The translations under genes were made by a program, and so were the position numbers. 64,000 nucleotides of DNA from Vicugna vicugna (lineage: Eukaryota). The stretch lies in the NCBI GenBank assembly GCA_013265495.1, contig MU057654.1, positions 173,203-237,202 on the forward strand. The letters run 5' to 3'. This document shows positions 16,357 to 26,295 of this stretch, one piece after another; position 1 is the first letter of the stretch; every line of letters starts with the position of its first letter. The notes under the pieces were generated by a model, which ran no database searches, was not told the origin of the DNA, and worked only from the letters and a program-made list of their open reading frames with translations.

Positions 16357-18900
16357 AGAGGGGATTCAAGATGGGAGAATAGAAGGACACAGAGCTCACC
16401 TCTGACAAATGCATCAAAAATACATCTATATATGGAACAATTCTCACAGAATACATACTGAACTCTGGCAGAAGATCTCATACAAGTAAAGCTACAAGAC
16501 AAACCTCCACACAACTGGGTAGGAAGAAAAAAAAGAATTGGGATGGGCCTTGCACCCTGGGGAGGGAGCACTGAAAGAAAAGTGCGCTCACCCTGGTAAG
16601 CACCTTCACCAAAGGAGGGATCAGCTGGGATAGAAGGGGAGCTTCAGAGGCTTGGAGGAGAGTGTAGCAGCCACTTTGCAGCAGGCAGAACAGAGAGACT
16701 GACACAAAGGATATGTGCAATCCCCAGCCAGAGACATAAGCCTATTTGTGCATGCTGGGACTGAGTGCTGAGGCTCGAGCTTTAGAAGACATACCTGGGG
16801 AGATGACTGGGTTTGGATGCACAGAGACAGCTTAAGGAGGTTGGAGAGTGGTACAGGCTGAAACTGGGAGTGTGTGCAAAGGAGCCCAGGTCCGCCAGGG
16901 AAAGCCCCATTGTTGGCATGCACAAGGTGAGGGGCAGGACCGCACCATAGCAGCCTCCTTCTCAGCGGCTCACAGGGGATGGTCCTGCCATAAAAGCCCC
17001 ATTGTTAATGTGCACTCATGAAGGGAGGAGTGGGACCCTGCCATAGAAGTCTCCTTCTGGCTTGCTTTGGAAGGGTGCAATCACTGGTGGTTTCCCCCAA
17101 GCTGAGGCAGGGCTGATATCTGAGCCTATTCCCAGGGGTCACACAACTTTAGAAGCAGGGCTGAAATTTGAGCTGTGTCCCAGGTGGATTTGGTGGATTC
17201 ATGCCATCAGTGCCTTTGTAAACTCACACATGCAGGACAACTGAGCAGAATACTGTTGCCCAGCTGGGACAGGTCTGGTGTTAATAGTAGGTGCGTGCAT
17301 GAGGAAGCAGGGCTGGGGTCAGGGCTGACCTTATAGCCCATGGTAGATCCAGGTGTGCAACAATTTTTGACTATGGTGGGTCCTGGTGCCTGACTTCAGC
17401 AGATCTGCGCTGTTGGCCTTGTGAGCACAGTGCCTGAGGGACACCAGGGCAGACTGCCTGCATCCCCATGGCTGAGGGGCGCTCAAGGGCAGCACCAATG
17501 CCAGCATACATTAGGAGCCCACACAGTGGGTGACAGGTGACACCACAGAAGGCACTTCACAGTGGACATGTCCTGTGGAGGATTACTCAGTGGCTCCTCT
17601 TCTAGTAGGAATGCTTCAGTCCTGCTTACCTCACACAGCAGCTCAGAAATGGATCTGGGGACTTCTACTCACAACCAGGAAACAAACCTGGACCCTGGCA
17701 GGGCTGTGACAACCACAGAGCAAAAAGGAGGCCCCACTTAACATTCAGTGCAGGCTCTAGTCACCACAACACTGATTACACCCCCTATCAAAGGAATAGC
17801 AGCCAGCACACACAGAGGAAAGACATGGCAGCCATCCACACTAAAAACAGCCCTTGTGACAAAAATATCAGATGCATGCAGGCTACAGGGGGACGCTCCC
17901 ACATATAAATAGCCCTTTGAGACCACAGTAGATAACTATTACTCCTAAATTCATAGTCAGAGAAATATAAGTAAAATGAAGAAGCAGAGGAACTACTGCC
18001 AATTAAAAGAACAAGAGAAATCCCCTGAAAGAACAATGAAACACACTTCTCCAGGCTACCAGATCCTGAGCTCAAAACGAAGATAATAAAAATACTGAAG
18101 GAATTAAGAAAGGCTATCAATAGAAATGCAGATCACTGTAACAAGGAACTAGAAACTATAAAGAGGAACCAATTAAAATTAGAAAACTCATTTGCCAAGA
18201 CAAAAGCTGAGCTAAAGGCAATAAATAGCAGACTAAATAAGGCAGAAGAATGAATAAGTGATCTGGGAGATAGAATAATGGAAATCACCCAATCAGAACA
18301 GCAGACAGAAAAACAAATGGAAAAAAGAAAGAAGGCAATATAAGAGATCTATGAGATAATATAAAGAGTGCCAACCTACACATAATAGGGATCCCAGAAG
18401 GAGAAGAAAGAGAAAAGAGGATCAAAAATGTATTTGAAGAAATTATGGCTGAAAACTTCCCAAACCTCAAAGAAGGAAACCGATCTCCAGGTACAGGAAG
18501 CACAGAGGGTCCCAAACAGACCTACACCAAGACATATTACAATTAAAATAGTTAAAGATAAAGAGAAGATTTTGAAGGCAGCGGAGAAAAACAGAGTTAG
18601 TTACAAGGGAACCCTCATAAGGCTATCGGCTGATTTCTCTACAGAAACGTTGCAGGCCAGAAAAGAGTGGCAAGATATATTTAAAGTCCTGAGAGAGAGA
18701 AACCTGCAACCTAGTAAGACTCTACCCATACTCTACCCAGCAACACTATTCTATTTCTTTCATTTTGTATCAGTATGAGGTAATGGATGTTCACTAAACT
18801 TACTGTGATAATTGTTTCATGGTGTATGTAAGCCAAATCATTATGCTGTACACCTTAAAATTATACAGTGCTGTGTGTCAACTAAACTGGAAGAGAAAAG
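16357..18900 (+). mobile_element. L1 5'UTR plus degenerate ORF1 joined directly to an L1 3' end (no ORF2)
   Basis: Starts gaggggattcaagatggg (L1 5' YY1-like motif). ORF1 peptides RPTPRHITIK and KGTLIRLSADFSTETLQARKEWQDIFKVL at 18428-18740, then 3'UTR motifs at 18770-18890. Confidence 0.75.
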
Positions 18901-19089
18901 AAGGAATATTTGTCTTAACAGACACAAAATGTGCATGTGAGAGAAAATTTAAAATAAGACAATAATCCAATCTACAAATATGCAGATTTGAAAACCAAAT
19001 ATCAAGATAAAAATGTAAATTTTAATAAAGATGTTTTATGTCAGATAGACAAATTGTTCTGGTATTTTGGTTTTGCTCACATTTTGTCT

Positions 19090-20360
19090 TAGGCTGCATC
19101 TACACAAACTAGTTTAATCATGTTTATTCTTTAGTTTGTTCTTTTTATAGTTATTTGAGGTGTAAGGTTTGGTTGTTTGAGATTGTTCTTCTTTAATGTA
19201 GGTTTTTTCACTATAAATTTCCCTCTTAATACTGCTTTTGTGATATCCCATAAGTTTTAATATGTTGTATTTTTGTTTTCATTTGTCTCAAGATAGTTTT
19301 AAATTTCCCTTTTGGTTTTCTCTTTGATTCATTGGTTGTACAAAAGTGTATTGTTTAATTTTCATGTATTTATGGATCTTCCAGTTTTCTTTCCACTATT
19401 GATTTCTTTTTTGTTTTATTTTTTAATTAAAAATGTTTATTATATACACTTTCATCATTTATGCTGTTGATTTCTAGTTTCATTCCATTGTGGTCAGAAA
19501 AGATACTTGGTATGATTTCAGTCATAAACTTGTTAAGACTTGTTTTGTGATCTAACATGTGATCCACTCTGGAGAATGTTGCATGGGTGCTTGAGAAGAA
19601 CATATATTCTATTGTTGGGTTGAAAGTTCTGTGTGTGTGTGTTAGGTTCATTTGGTCTATGGTGTTATCTGAATCCATTATTTTTTGTTGATTGTCTAGT
19701 TGATCTATCTATTAGTAAAGCTGGGGTATTGAAGTCTCTTACTCTTACTGTATTGTTGTCTACTTCTCTCTTCAGTTTTGGCAATGTCTCTTTTATTTTT
19801 GGGGGGGTCATTAGATTTACTTACTTATTTGTTTTAATGGAAGGACTGGGGATTGAACCCAGAACCTCACGCATGCTAAGCATGCGGTCTACCATTGAGC
19901 TATATCCTTCCCCCTGGCAATGTCTGTTTTTACACATTTAAGTGCTCTGATGTGAGGTGCCTATATATTTATAGATGTTATGTCTTCCAGGTGTATTGAT
20001 TCTTTTATCTTTATGTGATGTCCTTCGTTATCTCTTCTCACAGTTTTTGTCTTAAAATCTATTTTGTCTGATATATGTATAGCCACTCTGCTCCCTTTCC
20101 ATTACCATTTGCATGGAATATCTTTTTCCATCCCTTTACTTTCACCTTTGTGTGTCCTTAAATCTAAAGTTGGCCTTCTATAGACAGCATATAGTTCAAC
20201 CTTGTTTATCATTCCTTCAGCCACTGTATGTCTTTTGAGTTGAATTCATTTACATTTAAAGTAATTACTTATAAGGAATTATTTACTATTGTCATTTAAA
20301 AAAACTGTTTTCTGTTTGTCTTATAATTCTTTTGTCCCTCTTTCTCTGTCTTGCCATCTT
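19090..20360 (-). mobile_element. L1 ORF2 endonuclease-region fragment
   Basis: ORF 19427-19678 contains FSRVDHMLDHKTSLNKF...SIFSDHNGMKLEIN. Confidence 0.8.
19791..19914 (-). mobile_element. tRNA-derived SINE (camelid Vic-1-like)
   Basis: Reverse strand reads ggggaaggatatagctcaatggtaga...ttagcatgcgtgaggttctgggttcaatcccc (A/B boxes). TSD tggcaatgtct on both sides. Confidence 0.8.
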
Positions 20361-20759
20361 CCATTGTGCTAAAGACTTAAATAGACATTTTTCCAAAGAA
20401 GACATACAGATGGCTAACAGGCACATGAAAAGATGCTCAACATCACTAACCATCAGCGAAATGCAAGATAAAACTACAATGAAATTTCACCTCACATTTA
20501 CTAGGATGGTCATTATTTAAAATAACCAAAAAACAAATGTTGGCAAGGATGTGAAGAAATTGGTACTGTTGGTGGGAGTGCAAAATAATGCAGTCTCTAT
20601 GGAAAACAGCATAGAGACTACTCAAAAAATTAAAAATAAAACAACCATATGTTACCTAAAAGAATTATAATCAGAATCTTTAAGAAATATTAGCAGTCTC
20701 ATGTTCTTTGCAGTGCTATTCACAGTAGCTAAGATGTGAAAGCAACCTAAATGTCTATT

Positions 20760-23535
20760 TTTTTACAACAAAATGTGTAATGAGTTTAATAACATAATGC
20801 TTGCTGTAGAGAATTCTTACATACTCACTTGACTAAAACATACTATATTAATGCTGTACATTTTTACAAAAAAAGTTTCCAAATGAAAAAAAAGAATTAA
20901 ACATTTATGAATGGAGTTAGTTGTAGTAAACAATTGAATGTGAGCGTTTGACTGCTCCTTGTGCCTTCAAAGTTCTGCAGAAAATTTTATCTTTTTTGTT
21001 GTCCATCCAAAATGACTGAATTATTAGATGCCAGACTCTGTGTCCATGGAGAATCTATTCCACTATCTCCTGCCATGTGTGATTTTCTGTTCCTTCCAAG
21101 TGACTGAGCTCATTTTGGATCTCCTGAGCCAACACAGGTGTATGTGAAGTGTTGAAAATTTCTAACTTTTGTGTGAACGATTTTCTCATTTCCTGATTCT
21201 GAGCACTCTGACTCCAGCTAGCTGGTTTCTTTCTTGTGTCACAAAGATAGTCTTGGAGAGTTTCAGCCTCAGAAGCATCTTTCCTTGTGCCATAGTAATC
21301 AAATATACTTCCATCGGCAGGTGCTGAGGCCTGTACACAGTTAGCTACACTGGGTTCCTCTTCATCATTAAAACCAGACTGGGTCCCTGAATTGAAGACA
21401 CAGCTTTCAGCAGAGAGATTAGGGGTTTGGCTTTCACCTGGGTTAGTGAGCAACCCAGTGGGTTTGTAATGCTCATTTCCTTCAAGTACCTGAGGCTCAG
21501 ATGCCTCTATGTATGTTGCTAGTGTACTCAGTCAGAGACATTTCAGTGACCTTTTGTTTTCCTGAATGATTCCACTTGCTTCCTCCTGTAAAGGGATACT
21601 GAAAGTGGCCAGGCAGCATTTTAATTAAGTCATCATTCTCAGAAAAGTCGTCCTCATCTAGATATAATGAACTGCAGGCCCCATCACCATCTTCCACTTA
21701 ATTCTGATACAAGGCCTGGTTATCATCAGAAAGCCCTTCATTGTCTAAACTCTGCTTCCTGGACAAATGCCTTTCTCATTACACTTTCCTTTGAGTCTCT
21801 GTCTTGTCTCTCAGGTTGTCTCAAATGGTTTGCACCAATCGGGTAATTTAAAAGACCAAGATTTTGGAGTTGGCATATTGTTTTATCAATTAATCTATAA
21901 GCAGAGGATACTAGGTCTGAGGAAGAGGACCCTCGTGATGGCAGGGCATGCTGTGTTTCTTTTGTCTCTTCTAGTGTGTCAAAGTGAGAATAACTTTTCC
22001 TTAAGACTTCAAGGATTGCCTCATTTTCTCCACCATACATATCATATCTCAACATGCTTTCCCTCAAGGAACAGCATTTACAATCATTTTGCAAAACACT
22101 ACATTGAAAGTAATTTAAGAGGGAATCTCAAGTCATCGCTGATAGGTTTGACAATAGAGTTAGTCATACAAATGGATTCTGTTCTCAATTTATCATTACA
22201 CTATTCAGCACATGGCTATTCGACTTCATTCTCAAAGATTCTTAAGGAATCCAAGGACCCTGACCTTTGGAAAGGCTTTCCCTTTGGTGCAATCTGACTG
22301 GGTTTCAGATCACTAGTCTTCTGGATGTTGTACCTTTTGGTATTGGGTTCCCTCAGTGAGACAAACCCTGGAAAAGATTACTAATTTGTTTTTGTAAAAC
22401 AAATAAGAATCTGCACTGATGGATTCTCATCAAGTGGTTTCTGAACTACTGCTTCATTTGAGCTCTTAATTCTGGGGGTGGGCTGTGTAGCAGGAATATT
22501 GGGTTGTTTCTCCAGTCTAACGCTTCCTGGCTGCATCCCACTTACCTGACTCCTGGTTTTGTGTCTTTCCCTACGAGAATGGACCTACCTTCGAACTTTA
22601 CAGACTGGCCTTGCTTTTTCTTAACTCACACTTTTGAAAGATATTTGTGCCTGACTGTCAACATATCAGTGGAAGTGCCCTGGCTGTTACATTTCTTCTG
22701 TTCTTCATATTTTTGCATTAGGACAGTAATGTTTGATTAAGTTGTCAACAGTCAGAATGGGATTGATTTGTTTGATTACCTCATGTCTCAAGGGATATTG
22801 TCCAAGTTATCTTCATCTCGGACAGGCCATTCCTCTGGTGGGAATTGAACAGAGAAACTGCTGTGCTATGTTCTGGACTTCTCCTTTCTGGATATACTGA
22901 GCCAGACAAGGCTAAAACCAAGCTTCTTGACTTTTTATCTGTCTTTTGTGTGTAGTAAAGTTTTTGTGCACTCACAGAAGTGATTCTTCTCAGACACTGA
23001 AACTGCTCAATTCTGTACCAAAGATTTGGATTCCCCAAGACCTTTCTGGCCTTTTCTAGTCACTTGTGCAGCAGCTGATAGTTCCAGTATACCCTGAGTG
23101 CACACATCAGGGAAACAGCAGCAAGACTGACAGTGGGAAATGGGGCTGCAGTTTCTTTGACTAACTCTGCACAGCTCTCCACATTCACCAGATATGTAGT
23201 GGAAGTTGGCATCCAGGGGCTTTCATTTGATAGGACTCTCTTATTTTCTTGGGGGGTTGTATTTGTGATGAAGTAAGTGTGAGGAGTAACTACGAAGTAT
23301 CCAGTGTGAGAAATCTTCCTTTCTTTAATCAGAGTTCTCAGAGAGGTATAGAGACTATCTTGAGGTGGAATTGTAATGCTGGGGTAATATTTCATCAGAT
23401 ATTCCAAGAGTGACTCCTGTGTTACTACAACCTGAGTGGAATTCATATCTGATACAGCACAGCAAAGAACTTCATCCAAAGGTATGAACTGAGATTGAGC
23501 TATTGGATTCATTTGCACTGGAAAGACATCATCCA
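20760..23535 (-). pseudogene. STOX1: Processed pseudogene of storkhead box 1 (STOX1), from exon 2 through the 3'UTR and poly(A)
   Basis: Winged-helix peptide [30 protein letters not shown]...LIKERKI. C-terminus [22 protein letters not shown]...LTPFINV* with stop at 20897-20899. Intronless, with many frameshifts and stops. ATTAAA at 20785-20790 (minus strand) and poly(A) remnant at ~20758-20764. Confidence 0.92.
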
Positions 23536-24353
23536 CCTGTGACTCCTACCTGGCATGGTGATCAAAGGCAGGAGGCTGGGCAAATCTGGAGATGTGATCC
23601 TAAAAAAGCAGAGAGAAGATGCAGAGGTACACCATGTGGTTGGGCCCAAGAACCAAAGAGAGTCTCAAGGGCCAGAGATAGAGGAAGGGAGAGAAAGAGG
23701 AGGGGAGAGAAGGGTACTTAGAAAACAAAATATACCTTTCCCATGTGCATTCGCCACTAAGGGCTGGGGGTCATTACTGTCTGTCAGACTGAGTTTCAGA
23801 GCCCACTGAGAGTAGCCCAGCCAGGGTTCCTCAATTCTTGGCAAGACTTCAGGGAATTTCCGAACAATAGGAAGAGCAGAAAAGTATGAGAAAGGAAAGG
23901 AAAGCAGAAAATGGAAGACTTCCCTGATGATTCTGGCCTCCAGAACAGAGCATCCGATCAAGCCAGGGGGAGAAGGGAGTCAGCCCTGACGATCTGGCCT
24001 CCTGGGAGGGCCCGATCAAGCCAGGGGGAGACTCCTGTAGGGAGGAGGAGAAAGAGGGAGAAGCCCAAAGGGCTCCCCCAGAGTCCTAGCTATGTACAGG
24101 CCACCAAATGTTGTGGGACACAACACAGTGGCCCCTTGATGTGGTGACACGAAGGTTGGTGAAAGAATTTACCAGAGATAAAGTATGGGAATAGAAAAGG
24201 AGTTTATTAGGGTATGCTGTCATAGACAACAGTGGGCCACACAGATGAGAGGTGCCTGTGTGAGCCCTGGGGCAAAGAACAAGGGAAAAGTTTAGTAGCT
24301 ATGCTGCTATAGACAACAGCAGGCCACACAGGTAAGGGGTGCCTGCGTGAGCA
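23536..24353 (-). mobile_element. ERV1-like LTR R-U5 (24109-24353), tRNA-Ile PBS (24093-24106) and leader, fused 5' of STOX1
   Basis: Minus strand reads ctaataaactcc...tctctggtaaattctttcacc...cccacaaCA tt TGGTGGCCTGTACA. The last motif matches the tRNA-Ile(AAU) PBS TGGTGGCCCGTACG apart from two CpG transitions. Confidence 0.75.
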
Positions 24354-26295
24354 CAACCTAAATGTCTATTGATGGATGAATGGATAAAGAAAAATGGTAT
24401 ACAAGGGAATAGTGTTCAACCTTGAAAAAGAAGCAAATTCTAATTAAACCTGAAAGCTTTTGCACAGCAAATAAAACCATCAACAAAATTAAAAGACAAC
24501 CTACTGAATGGTGAAAAACATTTGAAAATGATATGACTAATAAGGGATTAAAATTCAACATGTGTAAACAGCTCATACAATTCAACATAAAAAAAACTCA
24601 ATTATAAATGAGCAGAATGATTGAATAGATGCTTTTCCAAAGAAGATATGCAGATGGTCAACAGGCACATGAAAAGATACTCAACATCACTAATCATCAG
24701 AGAAATGCAAATCAAAACTACAATGAGATATCACTTCATACCTGTCAGATGGCTATCATGAAAAAGAAGACAACAAATGTCGGCATGGATGTGGAGGAAA
24801 GGGAACCCTTGTACACTGTTGGTGGGAATGTCAATTGGCACAGCCACCATGAAAAACAGTATGGAGATTTCTCAAAAAACTGAAAATAGAACTACAATAA
24901 GACCCAGCAATTCCACTCTTGGGTATATATTCAAAAAAATCAAAAACTAATTTGGAAAGATATATGCACCCCAATGTTCATAGTAGAATTATTTACAATT
25001 TCCAAGATATGGAAGCAATATAAGTGTCCATCAACAGATGAATGAATAAAGAAATATGGAATTCTATGGAATTATAAAAAAGAATGAAATTTTGCCATTT
25101 GCAGCAACATGGATGGACTTGAAAGGTTTTATGCTAAGTAAAATAAGTCATAAAGATTAATAGTGAATGATATAACTTATATGTAGACTCTAAAAAGTAC
25201 AACAAAGTAGTGAATATAACAAAAGAGAATATACTCATAGATATAGAGAACAAACTAGTGGTTACCAGTGGGCATAGGGAAAGGAGGAGGAATAAGGAGG
25301 AGGAATAAGAGGTACAAACTATTAGGTATAAAATAAATTACAAAGATATACTGTAAATATATACTTCAACAAAAAAGAAGGAAATCCTGCCATTTGTGAC
25401 AACATGGATGAATCTTGAGGACATTTGCTATGTGAAATAAGCTAGTCACAGAAGGACAAATACTGCATGACTACACATATATGAGGTATGTAAAATAGTC
25501 AATCTCATAGAAGTAAAGAAAAGAATGGTGGCTACCAGAGGCTAGGGGGAGGCAGAAATGGGAAGTTGTTAATCAACATATATAAATTCAGTTATGCAAG
25601 ATGAATAAGCTTTAGAGATGATGTACAACATTTGTGCCTATAGATAACAATACTGTATTGTACTATTAATCTGTTAAGAAGATAAATCTCATGTTGTTTT
25701 CATGCCAAAATGGATAAATAAAAATAATCATGTTTATTGTTTCATTTTTAAATAATCTCATGATTGACTAAGCCAGCTGAGCAACTTGACCAATGAGTCA
25801 TTTTCTATCAGTCAATACAGTTTTTGATGTTTTCAATAGAAGAATTTTTTAAAACACTGATTATCCTGCCTTTTCACCAGGTCTAATTACTGATAATGAT
25901 TTATCAGAGATAAGTTTATTACAAGAAACAAATCATAAGCTTACTACAATCTCTTTCAAAAGAATGTGTTCCCTTTAAGAAACTACACCAAGAAAAATCA
26001 CCTCCCTCTTCTGAAGTTTTAAAATTTCTGCCTGATGATACTTTTGTTTTATGATGTTGAGTGTAAGTTTGCTGAATTTACCAGTTAAAAATTGTGTAGA
26101 TAGAGTAGGATTTTATGATTAAGGTAGCAAATGTGAAAAAAAAGAAAATTATTTAATTTCCAATTACATACAGTTTTATAATAACATGTGTTTTGATGGC
26201 TGCTACTCCATAAGTGACATGAGTGAATTTAAGTCTAAATTTCCAATTTTTCTGGTCTGCCCATCTATACATATTAACTTATACTATTCGAGAAA

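Follow-up and report, generated by a model that had tools for sequence, protein, structure and literature searches.

A retrocopy of STOX1 that opens in the long terminal repeat (LTR) of an endogenous retrovirus (ERV) instead of in STOX1 exon 1 lies on the minus strand of a 64,000-nucleotide (nt) stretch of Vicugna vicugna DNA (assembly GCA_013265495.1, contig MU057654.1, positions 173,203 to 237,202; hereafter the window, to which coordinates without a contig name refer). The insert is an L1-mediated processed pseudogene, being intronless and carrying a poly(A) tail and a target-site duplication (TSD) of 17 bp. In it, the first 820 bases of an ERV RNA are joined to STOX1 exon 2. The ERV part extends from the LTR transcription start to a splice donor that the element itself uses, and the STOX1 part starts at the exon 2 acceptor. 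With moderate confidence, we attribute this structure to splicing in cis from a provirus that has since been lost from the STOX1 locus or that lies beyond the end of the parental contig.

Anatomy of the insertion and its STOX1 part

The insert and its duplicated flanks comprise the following features, in the 5' to 3' direction of the copied RNA.

24354..24370, no strand assigned: TSD copy at the 5' end of the insert, an exact 17-mer present twice in the window
24109..24353, minus strand: LTR regions R and U5 without U3, beginning at the LTR transcription start and having a terminal CA
24093..24106, minus strand: primer-binding-site-like motif TGGTGGCCTGTACA, 2 nt (TT) past the terminal CA of the LTR
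23533..24092, minus strand: ERV leader of 560 nt, terminating in ...CACAGGTGG at the element's own 5' splice donor
23380..23532, minus strand: STOX1 exon 2, 91% identity to G000:C6816:12647782-12647934
21044..23379, minus strand: STOX1 exon 3, 89% identity over 2365 aligned columns to parental exon 3
20765..21043, minus strand: STOX1 exon 4 with stop codon (20899-20897), 3' untranslated region (UTR) and ATTAAA (20790-20785), 84-89% identity to parental exon 4
20760..20764, minus strand: poly(A) tail remnant of 5 A, not present at this place in the parental genomic sequence
20743..20759, no strand assigned: TSD copy at the 3' end of the insert, with the plus-strand nick site TCTATT/GATG

The 17-mer CAACCTAAATGTCTATT occurs at 20743-20759 and 24354-24370 with 0 mismatches, and these are its only two matches in the window; two or more matches were found in 0 of 100 dinucleotide-preserving shuffles. 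A single 3.6-kb minus-strand insertion lies between the two copies. L1 endonuclease prefers to nick at TTTT/AA, and the site used here, TCTATT/GATG, is pyrimidine-rich followed by a purine and thus a loose fit. Homology to the parent ends at TTTTGTTGT, where the parent continues with GGTTACAGG and the copy with its A-tail, which comprises 5 A at 20764-20760, or 7 if the first two A of the TSD are counted. The ATTAAA hexamer sits 25 nt upstream of this tail. Neither an A-run nor a second duplication is present at the internal ERV-STOX1 junction, and the interval 20000-25000 contains 0 N. The preliminary description of this DNA, made from the sequence alone, had proposed much of this anatomy, and it holds: one 17-bp TSD encloses one minus-strand 3.6-kb insertion; the LTR piece at 24353-24109 has a poly(A) signal (AATAAA at 24208-24203) and a CA end; the ERV leader before STOX1, put at about 550 nt, measures 560 nt; and STOX1 runs intronless to its stop codon, 3' UTR and poly(A), although the A-tail is just 5-7 nt long. 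No separate 4-6-bp duplication, which that description had associated with a secondary insertion, was seen around the ERV part.

The STOX1 part has a sole other home in the genome searched (G000; 2.03 Gb, 12,405 contigs), on contig C6816 (4 of 4 first-look candidates scored). Copy and parent are 91% identical in exon 2, 89% in exon 3, and 89% and 84% in two pieces of exon 4, and introns separate these pieces at the parental locus. In the retrocopy, exons 2/3 and 3/4 are fused at the parental splice sites, with deletions of 1 nt and 2 nt at the respective joints. Parental exon 3 is an intact frame of 785 codons, 100% identical to the 988-residue Vicugna pacos storkhead-box protein 1 isoform X1, and encodes the Stork_head winged-helix domain (PF10264, E 2.4e-12). 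Exon 1, located via the same 988-residue protein, is at C6816:12685243-12685552, giving an intron 1 of 37,308 bp.

Against the parental mRNA, the copy shows 89.6% identity over 2778 aligned bases, with 19 gap openings and a Kimura two-parameter (K2P) distance of 0.113. At a neutral rate of ~2.2e-9 per site per year, this distance corresponds to an age of roughly 26-51 million years, a span that reflects the parent's share of the divergence. Aligned to the parental protein, the copy falls into five pieces in three frames with 18 stop codons; on account of these stops and several frameshifts, it is a dead pseudogene without function. Two differences are seen near its 3' end: the parent reads ACTAGC where the copy has ATTAAA (L011/L013 versus window 20765-20830), and the parental 3' UTR holds a 57-nt stretch that is not in the copy. 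The poly(A) site of that time may no longer be the main site of STOX1.

Transcription start and splice donor of the ERV part

The 5' end of the retrocopy was compared with LTR copies fetched together with their flanks. All 10 of these reach 260-305 nt further upstream than the retrocopy start, indicating that U3 is missing from the retrocopy. Where U3 is retained, a motif resembling a TATA box (TTATAAAA or something close to it) begins 29 nt upstream of the start base. A family sample of 22 copies was then assembled from the seven best loci of the genome search and 15 more of the same list (L002-L008, L044-L058). Fourteen of the 22 begin at (G/A)GCTCA, at most one base from the retrocopy start and each with unrelated DNA upstream; six have U3 upstream of R, and two are unclassifiable at the 5' end, one being 5'-truncated and the other poorly aligned. 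One member, L002, is a complete processed ERV copy: it starts at GGCTCAC and passes through R, U5, primer-binding site, leader, a spliced junction and the polypurine tract into U3 and R, with A11 added ~20 nt past AATAAA and a 15-nt TSD (1 mismatch). The 14 copies that start at R are L1-made retrocopies of ERV RNA and serve as independent markers of the cap site. The earlier reading of an LTR that lacks U3 and starts at the U3/R boundary is therefore upheld by the missing 260-305 nt, the position of the TATA-like motif and the start shared with 14 of 22 family copies. L1-made retrocopies, spliced forms included, thus account for about two thirds of what was sampled from this camelid family of ERVs.

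The retrocopy LTR contains an 87-nt tandem duplication, with arms at 24300-24352 and 24213-24265, that takes in the TATA region together with the first 53 nt of R; its first repeat is where the retrocopy begins. L003, L005 and most of the solo LTRs (L022-L031) have the duplication too, while L004 and L008 carry a single copy, and it marks one LTR subfamily.

The layout of the element is retroviral. The LTR ends in CA and is followed by TT and TGGTGGCC..., and AATAAA is present. In L002, the polypurine tract AGGGGGGAA is followed by the TG that opens the 3' LTR, and a TATA-like motif and AATAAA are also found. Family copies carry TGGTGGCCCGTACGTGGC or close variants as the primer-binding-site-like motif, for which tRNA-Ile, named in the preliminary description, is a putative primer. 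A genome search with the L007 15-mer, allowing at most 2 mismatches, returned 522 matches in forward and 526 in reverse orientation, and the reversed 15-mer used as a control gave 386 and 350. The leader shows 74-79% identity to seven family copies, with homology ending at insert positions 838-842. Within 1.5 kb past the donor of L004 and L008, the only two copies covered, 0 of 10 open frames gave a retroviral Pfam match; it may be that decay has made the element unrecognisable, or that it is non-autonomous. A survey of camelid repeats notes numerous short ERV1 elements that lack open reading frames (ORFs) in V. pacos (PMC8605555).

At the internal junction, both sides coincide with splice sites (a bar marks the splice point). 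Parental intron 1 ends in ...cttag directly before the first copied base, so that the parent reads ...cttag|GTGATGTC where the copy reads GGTGG|ATGATGTC. Parental exon 2 opens with GTGATGTCTTTCC, and the copy junction reads ...CACAGGTGG ATGATGTCTTTCC; the first exon 2 base is A in the copy and G in the parent, a single substitution at the junction. The proposal that the STOX1 part begins at the exon 2 acceptor is hence confirmed to the base. On the other side, ERV homology stops at the element's own donor, GGTGG|GTGAGT. Across this region, 16 of the 22 family copies are unspliced, one is deleted over the site, one does not reach it, three are spliced there, and one (L003) uses a second donor 17 nt upstream. 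GT follows GGTGG directly in 14 of the 16 unspliced copies, nine of which read GTGAGT. In the three spliced copies, L002, L053 and L056, ERV exons from further downstream follow directly on GGTGG; for L056, the unspliced relative L058 shows ...CTCTTTAG just before the exon concerned. Because unspliced copies keep GT at this position and three spliced copies use it as a donor, the ERV part ends at a working 5' splice site. With exact splice sites on both sides, the junction bears the signature of splicing and not of an arbitrary breakpoint. That the ERV side lies at a conserved donor of the element itself is evidence beyond the earlier description.

Some further features of the leader and of ERV splicing were recorded. 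The four spliced ERV retrocopies use two different downstream exons, and in L002 the exon past the donor begins just ~285 nt before the 3' LTR. The leader of the STOX1 copy contains ACCATGCC 24 nt before the donor (23549-23557, minus strand), out of frame with STOX1. Since most family copies read CG or TG there, this leader ATG is probably a product of decay and not a conserved start.

Proposed origin of the ERV-STOX1 fusion

The preliminary description had placed a driving ERV at parental STOX1, in intron 1 or upstream of the gene. We searched C6816:12647700-12841344, which runs from exon 2 to the contig end over 193,645 bases without N, by blastn (word size 7, E<=0.01) with 11 queries, namely the ERV part of the copy and 10 full LTR copies. 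Under comparable settings, members of this ERV family readily match one another. The expected driver was not there: no cognate ERV or LTR lies upstream of parental exon 2 in these gap-free bases, intron 1 included, in this assembly. Genome-wide, with 40 of 861 first-look candidates scored, the best match to the ERV part reached 79% (82% for a portion), which is less than the 89-91% seen for STOX1, and LTR-only matches reached up to 88%; given this shortfall, none of the scored matches identifies the source provirus. Part of the shortfall is expected, because two neutral copies diverge faster from each other than a copy does from a constrained exon. Of the LTR-initiated STOX1 fusion transcript proposed earlier, the structure therefore stands (LTR start, donor and exon 2 acceptor), while the provirus that was to drive it is missing from the parental locus.

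In the route that we favour, an RNA would have begun at the transcription start of an ERV-like LTR and run through R, U5, the primer-binding site and the 560-nt leader to the major splice donor. This donor would have been spliced to the STOX1 exon 2 acceptor, with exons 3 and 4 following and polyadenylation occurring at the STOX1 site. L1 would then have reverse-transcribed the fusion RNA at the nick TCTATT/GATG within an older L1 ORF2, leaving the 17-bp TSD and a short A-tail. The source would have been a sense-oriented provirus located before exon 2, within intron 1 or ahead of the whole gene, active in an ancestral camelid germline or early embryo. As the copy is inherited, its RNA presumably existed in cells of that kind. 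As the present STOX1 locus holds no trace of the provirus, it would never have been fixed or would have been deleted later. Such a loss is probably no heavy cost to the model, since young, active proviruses are mostly unfixed and a sense provirus that captures exon 2 would be selected against.

Besides the empty parental locus and the modest identity of the best ERV matches, several observations weigh against this route, and most of them would favour a template switch by L1 reverse transcriptase. In that event, the enzyme would have left an exon-1-containing STOX1 mRNA for abundant unspliced ERV RNA at GGTGGGTGA and continued to the cap, with no ERV needed at STOX1. STOX1 exon 1 ends in ...GGGCGGTGG and has GTGAGT as its own donor; the normal STOX1 mRNA reads CGGTGG|GTGATG across exons 1/2 and unspliced ERV RNA reads (C/T)GGTGG|GTGAGT. 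The stretch GGTGGGTGA is thus shared precisely at the junction, with an identity of 9 nt to L004 and 10 nt to L006, and a switch from normal STOX1 mRNA would therefore give the observed sequence. Exon 1 is far richer in G+C than exon 2 (78% versus 43%), making a stall of the reverse transcriptase at their boundary plausible. L1 often took the RNA of this ERV as its template, judging by the 14 of 22 copies that begin at R, which raises the prior for a switch. No RNA dataset was listed as containing 20700-24400; two presumed-RNA runs share 0.09-0.12 of its words, and one further organism shares 0.03. The insert also has the layout of a switch, with two unrelated RNAs head to tail, one TSD and poly(A) at the 3' end only, and bipartite retrocopies within one TSD are a known product of L1 (PMC4476161, PMC11838501). 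In the ERV RNA, however, the breakpoint is a functional donor, and in the STOX1 mRNA it is an exon boundary. Between the 3.26-kb STOX1 mRNA model and the first 2.2 kb of each of four ERV copies, there are 33-47 other shared 9-mers and 6-11 shared 10-mers, none of which lies at a splice site or other RNA processing signal. A switch thus had to hit, among many equal sites, the one where a used donor meets an exon boundary, a pair that splicing predicts directly. Two of the four unspliced copies tested, L008 and L005, lack the junction identity, and the known switch partners catalogued in PMC11838501 are mostly small RNAs (70.9% U6, 10.5% 5S, 8.5% U3). We regard a template switch as unlikely.

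Trans-splicing would meet the same junction by another path: an ERV donor from elsewhere would be joined to the STOX1 exon 2 acceptor across the 37-kb intron 1, and L1 would copy the product, so that no provirus would ever have been present at the locus. The exactness of the junction at splice sites on both sides, the lack of an ERV at the parental locus and the length of intron 1 (37,308 bp) all agree with it. Trans-splicing is rare in mammals, and the loss of a source is unsurprising for proviruses that, when young, are mostly unfixed; the present data do not separate it from cis-splicing off a lost provirus, and we consider it improbable. For splice-site-exact mRNA/L1 chimeras, in which the skipped introns are long (median 48 kb), trans-splicing has been proposed (PMC11838501).

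Because nested repeats are common, we also considered a later ERV fragment inserted at the 5' end of a truncated STOX1 retrocopy, or a misassembly. The ERV piece, however, lacks U3, a 3' LTR and an A-tail of its own, no duplication of 4-6 bp or any other size flanks it, and it runs from a transcription start to a splice donor. As to misassembly, there is no N in 20000-25000, and 0.91-0.93 of the sampled words of 20700-24400 occur in 18 runs from 8 studies and 3 organisms, a measure of word content and not of aligned reads. Having no second duplication, ERV ends at processing signals, no N and its words in reads, the insert leaves both explanations with a very small probability, and they were rejected.

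Fusion RNAs that are exact at splice sites and captured by L1 are documented for mRNA/L1 chimeras (PMC11838501). We see an even chance that nothing but the retrocopy is left of a provirus that briefly hijacked STOX1 in an ancestral camelid germline, within a second, independent ERV family copied wholesale by L1 after HERV-W, as genomic RNA, as spliced RNA and, here, fused to a host gene.

One resemblance at the junction stands apart from these routes. Some ERV copies have a donor that matches the STOX1 exon 1 donor (CGGTGG|GTGAGT; L017) across 12 nt, and exon 2 itself begins with GTGA. This identity of the exon 1 and ERV donors is an unexplained coincidence under every model, and it blurs the mechanism.

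Encoded product, related systems and the host L1

The first ATG in the STOX1 frame lies in exon 2 (MNP...). By its predicted translation, the fusion RNA would encode STOX1 from this methionine, without the 109 preceding residues and with the Stork_head domain retained. Among four short isoforms from other mammals, three start at the same exon 2 methionine (P0004, P0034, P0019), and P0046 has a different first exon. The earlier suggestion that STOX1 without exon 1 would be a lineage-specific isoform is consequently not sustained, such a product being predicted in three of four short isoforms of other mammals.

The structure resembles several known systems. In mouse oocytes and two-cell embryos, ERV LTRs act as alternative promoters of chimeric host transcripts in which a leader donor is spliced to a host exon. 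The present copy has the same U3/R start, leader donor, host acceptor and skipped first exon; unlike those transcripts, it is known here from a retrocopied fossil alone, with no ERV at the parental locus. No literature was found on STOX1 in connection with an LTR and an alternative promoter. L1-made processed pseudogenes of HERV-W (PMC5537654, PMC5016936) begin at R and lack U3, run as far as the 3' R followed by poly(A), and are flanked by long TSDs; a review calls HERV-W the only HERV group that L1 has mobilised (PMC5537654). All these traits of processed pseudogenes recur in L002, and the start at R recurs in 14 of the 22 family copies; the differences are that this is another family, in camelids, with spliced forms and one fusion to a host gene, and that gag, pol and env were not recognised in the parts examined. 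A second ERV family mobilised by L1 would help to test what makes retroviral RNA a good L1 template.

Like the U6/L1 and mRNA/L1 chimeras of PMC11838501 and PMC4476161, the insert is bipartite with one TSD and one A-tail. Unlike them, its 3' partner is a host mRNA, its 5' partner is ERV RNA, and both sides of its junction are splice sites. Some mRNA/L1 chimeras end exactly at splice donors, and cis-splicing, trans-splicing and template switching are debated for them (PMC11838501). Retroposition mediated by LTR retrotransposons in virus-like particles likewise yields chimeras of LTR element and host mRNA with microsimilarity at the junction (PMC5131818, PMC5408686); the resulting copies have LTR flanks and short integrase duplications. 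The retrocopy described here lacks a 3' LTR, ends in poly(A) and has a TSD of 17 bp, and was therefore made by L1 and not by the LTR-mediated pathway.

Processed pseudogenes record the RNAs of the germline or early embryo of their time. This one would record a retrovirus-like promoter and donor that once drove a STOX1 message lacking exon 1, highlighting that such a record can outlive its source, after which cis-splicing, trans-splicing and template switching become hard to tell apart.

The insertion lies within an older L1, of which the following parts were recognised.

20365..20517, plus strand: C-terminal region of the host L1 ORF2, matching human LINE-1 ORF2p residues 1072-1122 (E 1.2e-16)
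18355-18775, plus strand: L1 ORF1 domains, by domain matches

The ORF2 match agrees with the earlier placement of the insertion inside an L1, which it interrupts further on, at 20743-20759. Orientation can be added to that placement: with the host L1 on the plus strand and the insert on the minus strand, the insertion is antisense to its host. A Pfam search with short stop-free pieces of the L1 flank gave no match. The spacing between the ORF1 domains (18355-18775) and ORF2 residues ~1072-1122 (20365-20517) is too short for an intact ORF2, suggesting that the interval 18355-20759 contains either an internal deletion or two L1 fragments.

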